Below are positions 9,459-25,738 of a stretch of 40,933 bases of DNA, piece by piece (within the stretch, counting starts at the first letter, position 1; each line of letters begins with the position of its first letter). Source of the stretch: an uncultured delta proteobacterium (GTDB lineage: Bacteria > Desulfobacterota > RBG-13-43-22); contig CAWDKY010000012.1 in the NCBI GenBank assembly GCA_963802945.1, positions 1-40,933 of the forward strand, in the 5' to 3' direction. The position numbers and the translations under genes were made by a program. The notes beneath the pieces are model-generated. The model had not been told where the DNA came from and did no database searches. It worked only from the letters and a program-made list of their open reading frames with translations.

Positions 9459-9965
9459 ATGCGTCAGGTCATTTCAGTCTTGGTTAGAAACCACCCCGGG
9501 GTATTGTCCCATGTGGCCGGCCTCTTTGCGCGGCGGGCTTATAATATCGAGAGTATCGTAGCCGGAATCACCGAGCGTCCGGACATCACCCGGATTACGA
9601 TGGTGGTCACTGGCGACGAGGCGACCCTGGAACAGGTGGCCAAACAGCTCAGAAAATTGATCGATGTCATTGGGGTTATCGATTTAAAATATTCCCAATC
9701 CATCACCCGGGAGCTGATCCTGATGACGGTCTATCTGCCGCCGGAAAAACGCGTTGAATTGATCCAGGTAGCCAATTCCTTCGGGGCCACTATTGTGGAC
9801 ATCTCCGATCAGACCGCCACGGTGGAGTTTTCCGGCAATGAACGGCGGATCAACACCCTGCTCATGGCCCTGGCCCCTTTCAAAGTTAAGGAGATCGCCC
9901 GAACCGGGCTGATCGCCCTGCCCTTGGAAAGCATTGTAACTGACAGCCGGGAATTTTTGGCCTGA
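9459..9965 (+). CDS. ilvN: Acetolactate synthase small regulatory subunit
   Basis: ACT domain ISVLVRNHPGVLSHVAGLFARRAYNIES, KQLRKLIDV, EIARTG; follows ilvB. Confidence 0.95.
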   Translation: MRQVISVLVRNHPGVLSHVAGLFARRAYNIESIVAGITERPDITRITMVVTGDEATLEQVAKQLRKLIDVIGVIDLKYSQSITRELILMTVYLPPEKRVELIQVANSFGATIVDISDQTATVEFSGNERRINTLLMALAPFKVKEIARTGLIALPLESIVTDSREFLA

Positions 9966-10099
9966 GGAAGGGGAACTACGATCCATCAGCCCTGAATAGA
10001 TCGAAGTCTGCCTTGCCAAAATAGCATCTAAAATCCTCTCCATCCTCCTTTACATTCCCTCGTTGTCCGTGCGAATCCGTGGCCAAAAACTAATGAGGT

Positions 10100-10213
10100 G
10101 TTCTGACCAGTAGTTGGGTTGACAGACAGTGTCAAAATAACTCCTTTTGTAGCTTTCAACAACAATTCTAAAGCGATCGGTCTGAAAATTAACGATTACT
10201 GTTGAAATGTGCA
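10100..10213 (+). repeat. Dispersed repeat of about 115 bp, possibly an IS-end remnant (copy 1)
   Basis: cagtagttgggtt..c.gacagtgtc...ataactc...attctaaagcgatcg...gaaaattaac aligns with 36787-36899. Confidence 0.75.
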
Positions 10214-10221
10214 AAAAATAT

Positions 10222-10460
10222 AAAAAGGTGACAGATTTATTTTTTAGTCTTTTTGGTCGACCCGGACCACAGAATTCCACTTGCCGTTCAATCTTCTTTT
10301 CAATTTCAAATAATCCTCATCCAAAGCAAAAACCGTTTGCCTGTTACGGCCTTGCTGGATGATATGATGTGGATAGTCTGCGATGACTATTTGCGATGTC
10401 CTTGGCCTGGCTAAACTTCTAATACACACCGATTAAAATCTATAAATCTGTTCCCTTTTT
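10222..10460 (-). mobile_element. Internally deleted RAYT-like (Y1 HUH transposase) element with IRs
   Basis: N-terminal PRTSQIVIADYPHHIIQQGRNRQTVFALDEDY is joined directly to a C-terminal ...GPGRPK. IRs aaaaaggtgacagatttat / ataaatctgttcccttttt match at 17 of 19. Confidence 0.75.
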
Positions 10461-19987: not shown

Positions 19988-20467
19988 TTAAAATTGGGAA
20001 GTCTCTTTGTCAGGTTGAATCTCAAAGTAAATACGTTTAATGAAGGCAACTCTATCATCTGTTTTTTGCTCGTCATTTGGATTGCTGATTATGTCGTGTA
20101 TAATCTCAACCTTAATTTGTTCCCCCCTCATAGATTGCAATATTGGATACATTGAAATTGGTAAGGTTATCTTTACATCTAAGACCTCACTATTTTCCTC
20201 TCCAAATCGAATATTGCCAATATATTTTGTTTCATCATATCCAGAGACATATTTCTGTGGATGCTCCCTAAATTCAATCCGGATGTTAACATCCGTTTTT
20301 GTTTTATGACTCCAGGTTTCTTTCAAGGAACCTTTAACAAGTGTACCGTCCATCTCCATTTCTGCAGAAATATGTTGTTCACCATCTTCATAAAGGCCAC
20401 CAGAATAGCGGGCCATAGAAATTGTAGCTATTACTGTAGAATCTCTTGATGTCGATAAATCCATCAA
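19988..20467 (-). CDS. Hypothetical protein, AT-rich
   Basis: 159-aa ORF with a GGAGG RBS; no family recognised. Confidence 0.7.
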   Translation of the reverse strand: MMDLSTSRDSTVIATISMARYSGGLYEDGEQHISAEMEMDGTLVKGSLKETWSHKTKTDVNIRIEFREHPQKYVSGYDETKYIGNIRFGEENSEVLDVKITLPISMYPILQSMRGEQIKVEIIHDIISNPNDEQKTDDRVAFIKRIYFEIQPDKETSQF

Positions 20468-20928
20468 ATCCTCCGCATATTTTACATGTCTAACATTATT
20501 TTTTATGCTGAGGCAATCTTTTCTTTAATGGTCAAAACTTTCGGGGATTATACAAACCCGCAATTATCGATTACGGTTTATAATATACACTACATTCAAA
20601 CTTTTTGGAAATAAAGAAGAAATCCTTCTATTCTTTAGTGGTGTGTATCGGTCACTCATAAAGTTGCGGCCTCCATCTCTTTCAGCAAAGCGGTGATGCA
20701 TTTCCTACCAATGAGTAGTTCAGTGCCGAGGGACATCGGATTTACTCCCTATGGAATCAACGACAATTTAATTTCTTCCTCACAGAAACTACTTTCTTTG
20801 AGCCGGTGGTTCCGTGGTCTATTCGGGCCATAAAATACCCATTCAATTAATTCATGAACGTCACGCCTTTTTTAAAGTGCAAGATTCAAGATCTGCCCCT
20901 CTTCCCATTGGTAGCGATCCACTTTCTG

Positions 20929-21259
20929 TCACGGATTATCAAATTCCCTAAGCTCATCCCTATAAGTTCCCAGAATACTTTCCTCCGGTAAGATTCCTTC
21001 GATAAGCCATTGAAGCCATTCATCCAGGATCATCAATGCTTCTTCCCTTAAGCAATGCAGTGTCCATTTCCCCCTCCTGCTCCTCAACAGGGTTCCCTGC
21101 CAGGCTGTCCAGCCACTTCACCCCTTCATAGAAAACGTCGTCATAGCGGGGAGGTTTAGAAAATTTAATCTACTCCCTTTGTAATTTTTTTTCGGCTAGC
21201 TTGGCCTGAATTTGCTCTTTAAGATTCTTCCTATAAAGGGTGTCGTTGTTCAGGATCAT
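20929..21259 (-). pseudogene. Disrupted hypothetical gene
   Basis: Protein-like reading MILNNDTLYRK... with an in-frame TAG at 21170-21172 and an apparent frameshift near 21048. Confidence 0.35.
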
Positions 21260-21273
21260 AGAAGAACACCCCC

Positions 21274-21558
21274 TTATTGTTTCGCTCGTCTTTTTGTTTT
21301 TCCGTAGGGTTGTTTTTTTTCTTTTACGTAGAGTTGTTCGGATCTCTGCCGATCGAGTTTATCCCCTTTTGCTGATGTAACGGTTATCTCCTCTGGTGGT
21401 ATGGAAACAACCTTTCCGTCCCGCCAAACTATGATGGGATGGCCCCTCAGTTTATGCTCGGCCACGGCCTCGGCTACTGCTTCCCGTAAAGCCTTCTCGG
21501 CCATGATATCCAGAGGCATTTCTTTCATCAGGTTCTTTCGATTAGATGGACGCCTCAT
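21274..21558 (-). CDS. Small hypothetical protein of a type often found in TA-like neighbourhoods
   Basis: GGAGG RBS; AEKALREAVAEAVAEHKLRGHPIIVWRDGKVVSIPPEEI. Confidence 0.7.
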   Translation of the reverse strand: MRRPSNRKNLMKEMPLDIMAEKALREAVAEAVAEHKLRGHPIIVWRDGKVVSIPPEEITVTSAKGDKLDRQRSEQLYVKEKKQPYGKTKRRAKQ

Positions 21559-21599
21559 AATACCTCCGATTTTTTCCTTATCTCAGCGAAGCCGGTAAA

Positions 21600-21622
21600 G
21601 GTGGTCACAATTTGTGACCACC
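21600..21622. repeat. Perfect palindrome GGTGGTCACAA-T-TTGTGACCACC
   Basis: 11-bp arms around a CAATTTG core. Confidence 0.85.
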
Positions 21623-21630
21623 AAAGCGTA

Positions 21631-21951
21631 TTAATATTGGACATGAGCTGGTTGGCTAACATTAAGGACTTTTACCTCGTGATCAAGACGTCCTTCGAGT
21701 TTGTCTTTTTCCACCTCAAGGTCGTACCGGGCCTGCATATTCAACCAGAAACGTTCCGATTGGCCGAAATATTTAGATAGCCTCAGGGCGGTATCCGCAC
21801 TGATCGAACGTTTTCCATGAATGATTTGATTAATTCGGCGAGGATGTACACTGATGTCCTTCGCCAATTTATACTGGCTGATTCCCCGGGGCTTTAGGAA
21901 TTCTTCTAATAATATCTCGCCTGGATGAATGGGGGCAAATTTTCTATTCAT
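21631..21951 (-). CDS. higA: HigA antitoxin (HTH)
   Basis: PIHPGEILLEEFLKP, RINQII.GKRSISADTALRL and FWLNMQ motifs. Confidence 0.95.
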   Translation of the reverse strand: MNRKFAPIHPGEILLEEFLKPRGISQYKLAKDISVHPRRINQIIHGKRSISADTALRLSKYFGQSERFWLNMQARYDLEVEKDKLEGRLDHEVKVLNVSQPAHVQY

Positions 21952-21960
21952 GAATACCTC

Positions 21961-22242
21961 CTAATGATAATCTGCAATATCAACATCATAAGCATTCCCT
22001 TGGCGCCAATAAAAACAGATCCGCCATTGGTTGTTGATCCGAATGCTATGTTCCCCTTGACGATCCCCGGAAAGTTTTTCAAGCTGGTTTCCAGGGGGAA
22101 TTCGTAAATCTTCAATATGTTCGGCGGCGTCAAGAATTGCCAATTTTTTCCAAGCTGCCCTGTAAAGATTCGGAGGAAAATGTTTAAATGGAAGGCGGGC
22201 AAAGAGCCGCTCGGTTTCTTTGTTTTGAAAAGTTTTGATCAT
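21961..22242 (-). CDS. higB: HigB toxin (RelE-like)
   Basis: MIKTF, LRIPPGNQLEKLSGDRQG.HSIRINNQWRICF, C-terminal DYH; toxin precedes antitoxin. Confidence 0.95.
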   Translation of the reverse strand: MIKTFQNKETERLFARLPFKHFPPNLYRAAWKKLAILDAAEHIEDLRIPPGNQLEKLSGDRQGEHSIRINNQWRICFYWRQGNAYDVDIADYH

Positions 22243-22249
22243 TAGTTAA

Positions 22250-22278
22250 ATAATAGCGCAGCACGCTATTAATAGCAA
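22250..22278 (-). promoter_or_regulatory. higBA promoter with operator palindrome; probably leaderless
   Basis: TTGCTA-17nt-TATTAT-7nt-ATG with no RBS. Inverted repeat TAATAGCG-n5-CGCTATTA at 22251-22271. Confidence 0.75.
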
Positions 22279-22466
22279 GAAAAAAATTACATGAAGGCCT
22301 CCCTTGAAGGCCGGCATATTTTGGGGTCAGGCAATGGTAATACCGTATTGATAAATGCGGGATTAGGCATGTTATTGGCTCTTAGTTTTAAAACCGTACC
22401 ACAAACGAATTATTCCCCCTCATCAATCTAACTGTTTCTGATTGTCCAACTTTTCTCTTTCGCCCC

Positions 22467-22524
22467 AAAATAAAAACCCCATCTCTTATTTGAAAAATGG
22501 GGTTTGGTGGACTGCTTCATGGAC
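22467..22524 (-). terminator. Conserved box plus intrinsic terminator, copy A
   Basis: Minus strand GTCCATGAAGCAGTCC...AAACCCCAT-loop-ATGGGGTTTTT; near-duplicate of 23341-23400. Confidence 0.7.
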
Positions 22525-22534
22525 GATCCTTTGG

Positions 22535-22610
22535 TTTAGAGCTGTTAGCGATCAGCGTTCAGGAAAAAACTTATAAGATTTAGGCTGAATGCTGTAAGCT
22601 GATGGCTATT
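22535..22610. repeat. Inverted heptamer-repeat element
   Basis: gctgtta gcgatca gcgttca ... gctgaat gctgtaa gctgatg. Confidence 0.6.
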
Positions 22611-22679
22611 CGCTTTATATTTATGAAGCCGGATTAAAATAATTTATTTAAACCTATTAAAAATCAAAGTCAACAACTC

Positions 22680-23231
22680 CTATTTTCGCGAAGATTTCTT
22701 TAGGCTGTATCGGGCTTGTTTTTCCTTGAGATCAAATCCAATCTTCCTTTTTGTCTTAACAGGCGGAGCCATCAATGCCCGCAGGGCATCAAAGACCACT
22801 TTAAACTGGGAATCATATTTCTTTTCCATGTCTTCGAGTTTCTGTCTTAGCTCCTCATGGGTTCCCAAGATCTCCCTCAGCCGGGAAAATGTTCGCATGA
22901 TTTGAATGTTGACCTGGATTGCCTGCTTACTATTAAGAATACTGGAGAGCATTGCAACTCCATTTTCGGTGAATGCAAAGGGTAACTTTCGGGTACCTCC
23001 CCATCTTGATGTTCCAAATTGGAAGATCAAGTTTTTAACTTCTTGATTTGTCAATTGAAACATGAAATCCTCGGGGAACCGATCCCAGTTCCGCCTGACC
23101 GCCCTATTAAGATTTCCTGTGGTAACTCCATAGAGGGCAGCTAAATCGCGGTCCAGCATGACCTTCTTACCTCTTATCAAAAGGATCTTGCTTTCAATAA
23201 TTTCCTCTGGCACTAAATTTTTATCTTCCAT
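22680..23231 (-). CDS. ORF6N domain-containing protein
   Basis: IRGKKVMLDRDLAALYGV, LNRAVRRN..RFPEDFMFQLT, PFAFTENGVAMLSSILNS and RKIGF. Confidence 0.93.
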   Translation of the reverse strand: MEDKNLVPEEIIESKILLIRGKKVMLDRDLAALYGVTTGNLNRAVRRNWDRFPEDFMFQLTNQEVKNLIFQFGTSRWGGTRKLPFAFTENGVAMLSSILNSKQAIQVNIQIMRTFSRLREILGTHEELRQKLEDMEKKYDSQFKVVFDALRALMAPPVKTKRKIGFDLKEKQARYSLKKSSRK

Positions 23232-23286
23232 TTTTTCAATCCTTGGTTAATTTCTATCATTCGAGAATAGGGTGCACAGTGGAAAC

Positions 23287-23311
23287 TTGAAGTCGCAATT
23301 TGCGACTTCAA
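23287..23311. repeat. Perfect palindrome TTGAAGTCGCAA-T-TTGCGACTTCAA
   Basis: 12-bp arms around a CAATTTG core, about 55 bp upstream of the ORF6N start. Confidence 0.85.
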
Positions 23312-23340
23312 AGTCATTATTTTTTCCTTCCCTTTTCCAG

Positions 23341-23400
23341 AAAACAAAAACCCCATCTTCTTTTTCAAAAAATGGGGTTTTGTTGGACTGCTTCATGGAC
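23341..23400 (-). terminator. Conserved box plus intrinsic terminator, copy B
   Basis: Minus strand GTCCATGAAGCAGTCC...AAAACCCCAT-loop-ATGGGGTTTTT, downstream of coaX. Confidence 0.7.
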
Positions 23401-23602
23401 CAGCCTTAACAGGAAAACAGGATTCAAGGACCTGCGACGAGCTTAGGAGGATTCGAGGACCGTAGGCGGAGTGAACAGCATGGCACTTAACCCCATTAAG
23501 TATTTTCATAATTCGTGGTGTCTGAAACGAGCAAGCTTAAGGGTTTAGTTAAACACGTTGCCGGCATCAAGAAAATTAAATGTTTCCGGATCGCATTACT
23601 CC

Positions 23603-24394
23603 TTATATTCTGTTCCTTTCATAAATAATCCGCAGGCCCTCCAAGGTCAGGTAATCGTCCACCTCTTCAATCGTTTTGGATTCGGAAGCAATCAAGGGGG
23701 CCAACCCGCCGGTGGCGATAACCTTGGGTTTTTTGGGAACGGCATCAATAAACCGCTGAACCAGTCCATCCACCAGCCCGGTGTAACCGTAAACAATACC
23801 CACGTTCATACCGCTGATGGTGTCTTTGGCCAGGACGGTTTTGGGTTTGGAAAAAATTTCTACCCGGGGGAGCTTGGAGGCCTTTTGAAACAGGGCCTCG
23901 CAGGAAATCAGAATTCCCGGGGCGATGGCCCCGCCCATATATTCCCCTTTTTCGGAAACATAATCAAAGGTGGTGGCCGTGCCGAAATCAACCACGATTA
24001 GATTGGTCCGGTATTTTTCATAAGCGGCAACGGCATTGACGATACGGTCGGCCCCCACTTCCTTGGGGTTATCATAAAAGATCGGCATGCCCGTCTTGAT
24101 TCCCGGGCCGACAAAGAGAGGACGGAGATTAAAAAAACGTTTTCCGAATTCTTCCAGGGTAAAAATCATGGGCGGAACCACACAGGAGATGATCATGTGG
24201 CCGATCTGGTCCATTTCCAGACCCCGGTTGTCAAAAAGATTTTTTATCGAAATCCCCAGCTCATCCAGGGTGGCATCCCGTTCGGTCCGGATACGCCAAT
24301 CACAAAGACGAACAGGGCCGTCATAGACTCCCAGAACAATATTCGTATTGCCCACATCCATGACCAATAAAAGGTCTTTGGCTTTCTTAGGCAT
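23603..24394 (-). CDS. coaX: Type III pantothenate kinase
   Basis: [29 protein letters not shown] and ATGG motifs. ATG 24394 overlaps the glmM stop. Confidence 0.96.
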
Positions 24395-25738
24395 TGAATT
24401 CCCTTTCAATCACTCGTGCCGTTTCTTCAGCCAGCGCCTGAATTTCTTTTTCATTTTCCCCTTCCACCATAATCCGGACCAGGGGTTCAGTTCCCGAGAA
24501 ACGCACCAGAAGACGTCCCTTTTCGCCCAGCTTCTTCTCCACCTTTTTCATTTGTTGGATGACAGCCGGAAATTCCTCCAGTCCCCGTCGTTCCTTGATT
24601 CGGACATTCACCAGCTTTTGCGGGTACTGGTCCATAATATCGGATAAGTCGGAAAGGCTTTTTTCTTCCTTTTGCATAATGGCCAAAAGCTGCAGGGCGC
24701 TCAATATCCCGTCTCCGGTCGGGTTATGATCCAGGAATATCAAATGGCCCGATTGTTCCCCCCGAAGTTACAGCCTCTTTTGACCATTTCCTCCACCACA
24801 TAACGATCTCCCACCTGGGTCCGGATCAGGCGGATCCCCTTCTGTCTCATAGACACTTCCAGTCCCATGTTGCTCATCACCGTAGTGACCAGGGTGTTTT
24901 TTTTCAACCGCTTTTCCTTGAACATCCGGCTGGCGCAGATGGCCATGATCTGATCCCCATTGACGATTTCTCCGCTTTCATCCACAAAAACAACCCGGTC
25001 GCCATCCCCGTCAAAACTGATGCCCAGGTCGGCCTTTTTTTTCCGGACCATGGCACCGACCAAACCTGGATAGAGGGCTCCGCAATTCTTATTGATGTTT
25101 TCTCCGTTCGGTTTGGCACCCAGCAAAGTCACCTCGGCCCCCAATTCCTCAAAAACCGTCGGGGCGCATTTGTAAGTGGCCCCATGGGCGCAGTCCAGGA
25201 CGATACGAAGTCCATCCAGGGTCAATTCCTGGGGAAAGGTGTTTTTTAAAAAAACAATATAACGACCGATGGCATCATCAATCCGAAAGGCCTTTCCGAC
25301 CTTATTGGCCGTGACCTTGGAAGAAGAAAGCTCCTCGGAAAACATAAGGGATTCGATCCGTTCTTCCATCCGGTCCGGCAATTTAAATCCGTTCCCGGAA
25401 AAAATCTTGATCCCGTTGTCCTGATAAGCATTATGTGAAGCGGAAATGACGATGCCGGCATCGGCCCTCATGCTGGTGGTCAAGAAGGCAATGCCCGGAG
25501 TAGGCAGGGGTCCGACCAGAAGAACATCCCCTCCCATGGAACAAATGCCGGCCGTGATGGCCGTTTCGATCATATAGCCGGACAATCGGGTATCTTTTCC
25601 CACTACAATTTTATGCCGCCGATTCTTATCTTTAAAAATATAAGCACAGCCTTTCCCAAGCTGCAGGGCCACTTCCACCGTCATGGGGTGAACATTGGCC
25701 ACTCCGCGGATCCCATCAGTACCGAAAAATTTCCGCAT
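24387..25738 (-). CDS. glmM: Phosphoglucosamine mutase (frameshift in a G-run near 24760)
   Basis: [14 protein letters not shown] and DGDGDR. Adding one G restores GGEQSGH and joins the C-terminal TGDG...RFSGTEP. Confidence 0.95.

Follow-up and report, generated by a model that had tools for sequence, protein, structure and literature searches.

Cis-acting sites that lie inside the gene of their own binding protein are known, for example the pac sites that phages carry in the small-terminase gene. The controller (C) proteins of restriction-modification systems, which are small DNA-binding proteins often encoded in restriction-modification or defense loci, have palindromic C-boxes upstream of their own gene. 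Repetitive extragenic palindromic and bacterial interspersed mosaic elements (REP/BIME) and the in-frame palindromic elements of Rickettsia occur at high copy number, in many unrelated genes or between genes, and DNA uptake sequences, which are genome-wide and species-specific, impose peptides where they fall in coding regions. Here we analyze a palindrome that lies in frame within a gene of the ORF6N family on a 40,933-nt stretch (positions 1 to 40,933 of contig CAWDKY010000012.1, assembly GCA_963802945.1) of the DNA of an uncultured Desulfobacterota bacterium, the whole of which is referred to below as the window, and in the homologs of that gene. The element spans 27–33 bp, with an apex CAAWTTG and arms of 10–16 bp, and is found in genes of the ORF6N/PDC-S05 type. 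Its self-complementarity is maintained by DNA-level selection across many phyla, in two codon phases, which makes it a clear case of a coding sequence under a second, DNA-level constraint across many bacterial phyla.

We file the element under a known kind, the cis palindrome linked to the gene of a DNA-binding protein, of which it is an unusual member in that it is in frame, is read in two phases, crosses phyla and is accompanied by paired amino acid changes. Like intragenic operators and pac sites, it is a dyad-symmetric site linked to such a gene, although binding by the ORF6N protein is predicted only, and as in intragenic-operator systems there are extra copies near the promoter in a minority of loci. 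Unlike intragenic operators, the ORF6N site is translated in frame, in either of two codon phases, and keeps a single codon position throughout many phyla. The likeness to C-protein systems is that ORF6N genes adjoin restriction-modification genes in 8 of 80 loci, and hsdM and hsdS on contig C53; however, the ORF6N site is intragenic, the protein is not of the Xre helix-turn-helix type, and most of the genes have no restriction-modification neighbor. With the REP/BIME and Rickettsia elements the palindrome shares short hairpin units, tandem clusters, differing arms and translatability in a tolerant loop, but it is present in only ~18 copies per genome, in essentially one gene family, and with no dedicated transposase seen. 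Indeed, a mobile element of the REP/BIME type is ruled against by these ~18 copies, 10 of them inside ORF6N genes or pseudogenes, and by the presence of ORF6N in 48 of the 54 motif-positive genomes. As DNA uptake sequences do, the ORF6N motif constrains the peptide from the DNA level, in more than one frame, but it is specific to a gene family and spans many phyla. In the parts of the literature on ORF6N, PDC-S05, RhuM and KilA-N that were covered, with subscription journals and bioRxiv supplements outside the scope, no description of the palindrome was found.

The initial annotation had pointed to three hairpin-forming palindromes in the window that share one center, and all three are present and lie far above chance, as seen in scans of the window and of the genome and in fold z-scores (Table 1). 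Their common center is CAAWTTG. The internal palindrome, 23005-23031, has arms of 13 nt on either side of a single central nucleotide, with a single C.C mismatch, and forms codons 68-76 (L68-R76) of the 183-residue open reading frame (ORF) on the minus strand, where it encodes LIFQFGTSR. The palindrome at 23287-23311 has its center 68 nt 5′ of the ORF6N ATG and reads LKSQIATSS on the minus strand. The palindrome at 21600-21622, a perfect 11+1+11 repeat situated after the end of higA and before a 94-residue ORF begins, reads VVTICDH on the plus strand and, in the direction of the gene, VVTNCDH on the minus strand. The three peptides originally read from these sites are thus confirmed, with the qualification that VVTICDH is the plus-strand reading. 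The two copies outside the gene are the only perfect tight palindromes with arms of at least 10 nt in the window, and in the whole 4.37-Mb assembly 9 of the 45 palindromes of this description have a CAAWTTG center. At least seven of eight flanking positions are paired at 16 of 693 genomic CAAWTTG sites, compared with ~0.3 expected from a binomial estimate. When folded as single-stranded DNA, the internal, 23287-23311 and 21600-21622 palindromes have energies of −6.8, −11.8 and −11.1 kcal/mol, with z-scores against shuffles of −2.6, −5.4 and −6.4, respectively. A terminator scan flags 23287-23311 on the plus strand only, antisense to the gene, and leaves the internal palindrome and 21600-21622 unflagged.

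That selection acts on the symmetry of the DNA had been proposed from the window alone, and comparison of the homologs, with synonymous shuffles as controls, bears this out. The homolog set contains 80 genome-contig loci with 51–80% protein identity, whose record titles place them in Nitrospirota, Planctomycetota, Verrucomicrobiota, Bacteroidota, Acidobacteriota, candidate phyla and others. Stems were measured in the segment bounded by the FxFxL and FTE anchors, which were found in 79 of the loci (L021 excepted), with 500 synonymous-codon shuffles per gene. The mean perfect stem in the 79 homologs is 9.4 pairs, compared with 4.2 in the shuffles; p is ≤0.002 in 41 of the genes and ≤0.05 in 48. 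A stem of at least 10 pairs with no more than two mismatches is located at the same codons in 75 of the 79. The same is seen in 45 distinct genes from viral contigs, for which an imperfect-stem score (+1 per pair, −1.5 per mismatch) averages 9.1 versus 4.2 in shuffles, with p ≤ 0.01 in 28. The exceptions among the viral contigs are a gut-type group that retains a 6-pair core only and one type without the palindrome altogether. The element is widespread, not universal.

The covariation analyses reveal that the two arms change together. In an ungapped alignment of 149 distinct 33-nt segments, 88.6% of the cells are paired, compared with 66.4 ± 0.6% in the shuffles, none of which (0/500) reaches this value, and with 28–44% when the partner columns are slid by one to three positions; relatedness inflates such counts, and the slid-column control retains it. 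Changes are observed on both sides in 15 of 15 stem pairs, and there are 472 double-change cells versus 144 ± 14 in the shuffles. Thus, the compensatory arm changes anticipated in the initial annotation are present in the homologs. Beyond pairing, the apex and the inner arm also show conservation of the bases themselves. The covariation extends to synonymous sites. Across the apex, the third base of the Gly codon tracks the middle base of the Phe/Cys codon (TTC is paired with GGA in 20 of 26 cases and TGC with GGC in 13 of 15; Fisher 3e-5), and the Ser codon is TCA or TCG in 98 of 98 cases, with TCA accompanying Val in 73 of 73 and TCG accompanying Ala in 24 of 25. Because codon pairings across the apex covary in this way, compensatory changes either alter two amino acids jointly or fix synonymous codons. 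The DNA-level constraint is strong enough to force paired amino acid changes and to determine synonymous codon choice, and ORF6N constructs that are codon-optimized or recoded would silently destroy a conserved element.

The palindrome also accounts for the two peptide types at this position, LxSQxxTS and VVxNCDH, which the initial annotation had named and which are both real in the homologs. Among 179 distinct coding segments, 152 have a palindrome score of at least 9. The center is in codon phase 0 in 139 of these (for example, LKSQIVTSS and LRFQIGTSK) and in phase 1 in 13 (for example, EVVTNCDHL and ELVTICDRF), while phase 2 is found in none of the 152; by our reading of the core, phase 2 would place a stop codon in its commonest variant. 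The two types differ by 2 nt in the spacing of the center from the FP anchor, and the length of the segment is equal. Both peptide types are translations of a single DNA palindrome in different codon phases, and this is why motifs that look unrelated share one position. The conserved entity here is thus the DNA and not the peptide, since one palindrome serves both phases. In one gene (L128, genome G229, nt 405-1040), an in-frame TAG replaces the Trp codon immediately after the palindrome, and the gene is otherwise intact.

A census of mismatches in 120 distinct internal palindromes shows that 66 are perfect and that 63 of 1,634 pairs are mismatched, so that the ORF6N palindrome is far more symmetric than typical operators, with arms that covary freely. 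The mismatches comprise 14 G.T, 23 A.C and 26 others (G.T versus A.C, binomial p 0.19). Because G.T mismatches are not favored, the constraint appears to be on DNA and not on a hairpin in the sense RNA. We therefore regard as quite improbable the alternative that an mRNA hairpin, in some cases in a 5′ leader, controls stability or translation. Such a hairpin would have a stable stem and a 3-nt loop, variants of the central triplet leave the stem intact, and some upstream copies abut the ribosome-binding site or sit in the first codons; yet wobble pairs, which would ease the coding constraint, are present at only the 14 of 1,634 pairs just noted, and the free copies are symmetric and occur in either orientation. 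Nor does an Rfam scan of 20000-25000 at E ≤ 1 yield a match to the palindromes, the three weak small-RNA-like matches that it gives lying over a terminator-like repeat only. In two loci (L039 and L029), a second palindrome is located in the first codons of the ORF6N gene, where its in-frame translation is LKSQIVTS or LKSQNATS, as part of an N-terminal extension.

The palindrome is closely tied to one gene family. The core motif GTCRCAAWTTGYGAC is present in 54 of 301 sampled phylum genomes, compared with 1 for the reversed control pattern, and 77 of the same 301 genomes have an ORF6N protein match at E ≤ 1e-20. The motif and the match occur together in 48 genomes, the motif without a match in 6, a match without the motif in 29 and neither in 218; no p-value is attached to this cross-tabulation because kin are not independent. 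Inspection of four of the six motif-positive, ORF6N-negative genomes revealed ORF6N genes missed by the query in two. In contrast to this tie, the surroundings of the genes are variable. The 146 nearest flanking ORFs of the 80 loci are heterogeneous, including chaperones, glutamine synthetase, carbamoyl-phosphate synthase, primase and NADH-dehydrogenase subunits; restriction-modification domains are found near 8 loci, another ORF6N gene near 3, an integrase near 1 and a transposase near 1. There is no constant neighbor gene among them and no dedicated transposase partner, a search of genomes aimed at one lying outside the analysis. As no partner gene travels with the palindrome, its reader must be the ORF6N protein or universal host machinery.

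The latter option is that the palindrome is purely structural, with the hairpin or cruciform acting through universal host machinery, independently of ORF6N binding, by way of supercoiling-sensitive transcription, replication pausing or structure-specific nucleases, and with breakage and repair yielding relics and truncations. The near-perfect symmetry and the free variation of the arms argue that base pairing itself is selected, whatever the reader, and the structural explanation would account directly for complementarity that is kept despite variable arms, with 15 of 15 pairs covarying and 66 of 120 palindromes perfect. It is also consistent with the A/T-rich apex and with host machinery being the sole remaining factor that all these phyla share. 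Moreover, several rearrangement boundaries, four by our count and each a truncation or relic, lie within a few nucleotides of a palindrome edge: the ORF6N gene of L217 is truncated right after the palindrome, at its 3′ edge, the relic in the window has its 5′ end at the 5′ edge, and an excerpt at C30 267628 ends at the 3′ edge. However, a structural role leaves unexplained why the element should keep to a single gene family and a single codon position, with the motif nearly confined to ORF6N-bearing genomes, and why the apex and inner arm are conserved as sequence. We consider it somewhat unlikely.

The window protein belongs with the ORF6N (PF10543), PDC-S05 and Rha-like phage regulators by its matches to the PF10543 and PDC-S05 models. 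The match to Pfam ORF6N has an E value of 3e-34 (117.6 bits compared with a cutoff of 27.8) and covers model positions 1-86 of 86, and that to the PADLOC candidate defense family PDC-S05 (model PDLC04856) has an E value of 1.3e-58. A 311-residue paralog on contig C53 matches another PDC-S05 model, PDLC04869, at 2e-126. This paralog (L002, G000 C53, 5586-8586) carries two tandem palindromes and is located between an hsdM gene split into three ORFs and hsdS; its C terminus gives a weak PLD-like match at E 2e-4, below the cutoff. The AlphaFold2 (AF2) model of the window protein (predicted local distance difference test score, pLDDT, 74.7) contains an α/β N-terminal domain followed by long C-terminal helices, and the palindrome-encoded residues form the end of a helix (residues 62-72) and the start of a low-confidence loop (residues 73-84). 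Comparison of the model with known folds gave weak matches to the Dachshund/Ski DHD fold (Foldseek E 0.15–0.3; VIA Z 5.5–5.9), to the N-terminal domain of baculovirus Orf22 (Z 6.0) and to the Mbp1 APSES domain (Z 4.8). These suggest that the N-terminal domain may be winged-helix-like or KilA-N-like, of a DNA-binding type. A relationship between KilA-N and APSES domains is known, and the weak matches to DNA-binding-domain folds fit it. A homodimer prediction for the protein scored 0.28, compared with a mark of 0.42.

The family itself is very large: at least 8,000 proteins match at E ≤ 1e-5, as the best 8,000 candidates were scored and all fell below this threshold, and among cultured-phage records five only contain a relative. 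A representative of PDC-S05, described with a RhuM domain, is reported to have lowered the plating of T7 and T5 on Escherichia coli B by ~1,000-fold (bioRxiv 10.1101/2024.09.26.614923). The representative tested there is not the window protein. For a family of this size whose function is obscure and that matches a candidate anti-phage system, the palindrome offers a concrete and testable way in.

We tentatively favor, as possible but short of probable, the explanation that the palindrome is a candidate cis site, capable of forming a hairpin or cruciform, that is predicted to be recognized by the gene's own winged-helix-like product. This explanation is ranked first because the element co-occurs with ORF6N, no other partner is found and the fold is DNA-binding-like. 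In such a mechanism, the palindrome would extrude as a hairpin or cruciform and act in cis. The ORF6N product would recognize it through the winged-helix-like domain, and the attached long helical region may oligomerize. Embedding of the site in the gene would keep protein and site linked, and binding could result in autoregulation, by a roadblock or at an operator, or could mark the locus as self for defense, with free copies titrating or recruiting the protein. A more far-reaching version, in which ORF6N is a minimal self-contained element whose protein reads the hairpin or cruciform of its own gene, regulating or arming defense, driving the copying of palindrome-centered segments into tandem intragenic units and free excerpts and possibly moving the single-gene cassette, is decidedly doubtful. 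If this version were true, the recognized DNA would encode part of the very domain that is predicted to bind DNA.

Several findings weigh against the favored explanation. The similarity to known folds is weak (Foldseek E ≥ 0.15, Z ≤ 6.3); a Foldseek search of the PDB with the model gave no match at E ≤ 1e-3, and a sequence search of solved structures with the protein gave none at E ≤ 1. Some lineages have kept the peptide but lost the outer arms or the whole palindrome, and the element is therefore dispensable in places. Near-perfect complementarity with free arms fits selection on pairing better than it fits an operator for a dimer. The site that is conserved in the family lies 200 nt inside the gene and not at the promoter, while an upstream copy, 150–420 nt before the internal one, is found in 22 of 133 nonredundant genes only. 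Where upstream copies occur, their distance to the ATG ranges from overlap to about −77 nt, and no helical phasing is evident, as judged by eye, in upstream-to-internal distances of 216–317 nt. Finally, the arms of upstream and internal palindromes are hardly better matched within a locus (6.2 of 10 positions) than between loci (5.85; permutation p 0.10).

The free-standing copies bear on this question, as the initial annotation had offered them as operators. Comparison with same-genus genes shows that 21585-21622, which contains the 21600-21622 palindrome and 15 nt on its 3′ side in gene direction, matches ORF6N genes of the VVTNCDHLSRLR type at 97% identity along its 38 nt, with a minus-strand reading of VVTNCDHLYRLR followed by a stop. 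Thus, at least this one of the window's free copies is, judging from the match, a short excerpt of an ORF6N gene. Other copies show similar extensions: that at C30 267628 is identical over 39 nt to a truncated ORF6N gene in a different genome, and 12 of these nucleotides are coding flank on the upstream side; that at C14 31364 matches over 35 nt at 97%. The 23287-23311 copy matches over the palindrome alone (28 nt, 100%), the match being to the internal palindrome of the ORF6N gene in locus L070. As a control for searching with palindromes only, 30 genus-level ORF6N genes were cut into 33-nt pieces and searched in the genome. Isolated matches outside ORF6N genes came from the palindrome segment (seven loci) and from the extreme 3′ end (three loci), and no other part of the genes gave one, with the caveat that the palindrome is the best-conserved DNA and has the highest detection power. 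In the 80 loci, family palindromes are ~10 times denser within 250 nt upstream of ORF6N genes (10 in 19.6 kb) than in the rest of the flanking sequence (10 in 192 kb); a few of the upstream copies belong to truncated upstream ORF6N genes. Short palindrome-centered ORF6N excerpts therefore occur outside genes, preferentially just 5′ of other ORF6N genes.

The copy at 23287-23311 is not conserved. In three orthologous loci with the same LIFQFGTSRWGGTRK gene, the upstream DNA is unrelated in two, and in the third it contains a terminator-like repeat followed by what appears, from this single comparison, to be a half-deleted version of the copy; it is thus absent from two of the three loci and apparently decayed in the third. 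An operator role for the outside copies is accordingly weakened, as one is a 38-nt gene relic, the other is not conserved and arms are not matched within loci. The free copies in the window may instead be by-products, that is, gene excerpts or relics and not conserved operators, which may titrate or recruit the protein.

As an alternative, the initial annotation proposed a donor or recombination role for the outside copies, which would diversify the segment or mobilize neighboring toxin-antitoxin cassettes. The palindrome segment is where paralogs are most divergent, a same-genus higBA pair is flanked on both sides by palindrome-bearing ORF6N fragments, and contigs of metagenomes, whose low likeness makes them a weak hint, join the relic to the terminator-like repeat. 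Maximum chi-square analysis of 27 genus-level paralogs, however, gave 43 strong pairs among 351, and the breakpoints cluster at nt 390-479, in the homogenized 3′ end (31 of 43), with none of the 43 at nt 180-239, the site of the palindrome. Moreover, cassette borders are formed by the ~65-nt terminator-like repeat, and palindromes lie beside only 1 of its 10 copies on contig C30. Diversification of the protein from the outside copies is therefore unsupported, and we judge a donor or recombination role, taken as a whole, to be highly improbable. The palindrome may still take part in rearrangement, given the four truncation or relic boundaries close to palindrome edges.

A relaxed scan of the genome, of the kind suggested when the palindromes were first noticed, yields ~18 sites with the core (G/A)TC(A/G)CAAWTTG(Y)GA(C/T) and outer arms that are variable yet complementary, and their positions favor ORF6N genes, of which tblastn finds ~10 paralogs or pseudogenes. 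Ten of the sites are inside ORF6N genes or pseudogenes, invariably at the same codons. Four more are just 5′ of two ORF6N genes: the window gene has one such site, and the C30 267689 paralog has a tandem array of three. The last four are the 21600-22 copy in the window and three in a ~250-nt repeat. Palindromic units can also be repeated within a gene, with differing arms: three of the four units in L232 are palindromic, as are three units in L083 and two in the C53 gene. Two near-identical ORF6N copies in L001 (G000 C30; 13293-13865 versus 9851-10399) differ by two single-nucleotide indels, a deletion ahead of the palindrome and, 96 nt further on, an insertion; because of these two changes, one copy has its palindrome read in the other frame and has lost the conserved AFTE motif, and its frame is still open.

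This distribution can also be read as that of a selfish palindromic module, comparable to in-frame palindromic insertions and REP-type elements, that colonized a permissive surface loop of ORF6N and copies itself beside existing copies. Such a module would explain two codon phases at one place, the tandem intragenic units with different arms, the three different tandem excerpts 5′ of one paralog, the copy inside the unrelated ~250-nt repeat and the restriction of material found outside genes to palindrome-centered excerpts and 3′ ends, and the encoded segment is a low-confidence loop in the model. We nevertheless regard it as unlikely: the copy number in the genome is low, the element hardly ever occurs apart from ORF6N genes, it sits at a constant place in the protein from phylum to phylum, a place that falls within the Pfam model, and no transposase partner was seen among the flanking ORFs. 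The ~250-nt repeat family (G000 C15 516516-516730, C14 129453-129663, C14 31278-31474, C19 1452-1656 and C27 60767-60918) carries a copy of the palindrome that is degenerate in two members. An IS110-family transposase gene is inserted ~110 nt from the palindrome in one member, and another member is located directly downstream of an ORF6N gene.

Table 1. Features of the window that surround the ORF6N gene and its palindromes
Feature	Position	Strand	Basis or remark
ORF6N gene, 183 amino acids	22680..23231	−	Pfam PF10543, PADLOC PDC-S05, AF2 model
Internal palindrome, apex CAAWTTG	23005..23031	−	Homologous position palindromic in 75/79 homologs
Free-standing perfect palindrome, 12+1+12	23287..23311	no strand	28 nt at 100% to L070 internal palindrome
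Putative 38-nt relic of a VVTNCDH-type ORF6N gene	21585..21622	−	Perfect palindrome 21600-21622 with 15 nt of coding sequence on its 3′ side
Terminator-like repeat, upstream copy	23341..23407	−	Conserved 5′ box, hairpin, T-run; scanned as minus-strand terminator
Terminator-like repeat, downstream copy; ends ORF6N cassette	22467..22531	−	Direct repeat of 23341-23407
Toxin-antitoxin pair, higB (21961-22242) and higA (21631-21951)	21631..22242	−	HigB-like_toxin E 3e-20, HTH_3 E 1e-11
94-amino acid ORF	21274..21558	−	ATG 53 nt downstream of relic palindrome center

In the window, the higBA pair is positioned between the ORF6N cassette and the relic. A higBA pair 87% identical to it is found in a same-genus genome (L220, G305, 1200-2350), with different ORF6N fragments on the two sides, each containing a palindrome. 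The 94-residue ORF has no Pfam, NCBIfam or PADLOC match, and its Atlas matches, at 0.83 only, are to unnamed clusters. No public sequencing run with half or more of the stretch was found, and none of RNA that contains it is listed. The contigs of four metagenome runs, which have 88% likeness to the stretch, are from other organisms; it is these contigs that join the relic directly to the terminator-like repeat.

The 3′ ends of divergent ORF6N paralogs are homogenized over gene nt ~400-552 and ~150 nt of 3′ untranslated region (for example, window 22531-22830), and isolated relics of the 3′ end are present at C27 119375, C30 252525 and C30 258550. The homogenization suggests concerted evolution or cassette exchange at this end. 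Insertions among housekeeping genes in other phyla (L030, L084 and L016/L026) hint that the single-gene ORF6N cassette is mobile: ORF6N genes separate two genes for NADH-dehydrogenase antiporter-like subunits, adjoin carbamoyl-phosphate synthase and, at another site, lie between the methyltransferase and pterin/B12 parts of a methionine-synthase-like gene.

The terminator-like repeat, with ~25 copies in the genome, flanks cassettes and looks like a cassette-border element. The cassettes bracketed by it contain ORF6N genes, a ParE-like/HTH pair, an MNT/HEPN pair and a MaoC pair, and examples outside the window are located at G000 contig C30 258985-268502 and C53 82595-84942. The next gene often starts only ~20 nt after the repeat.

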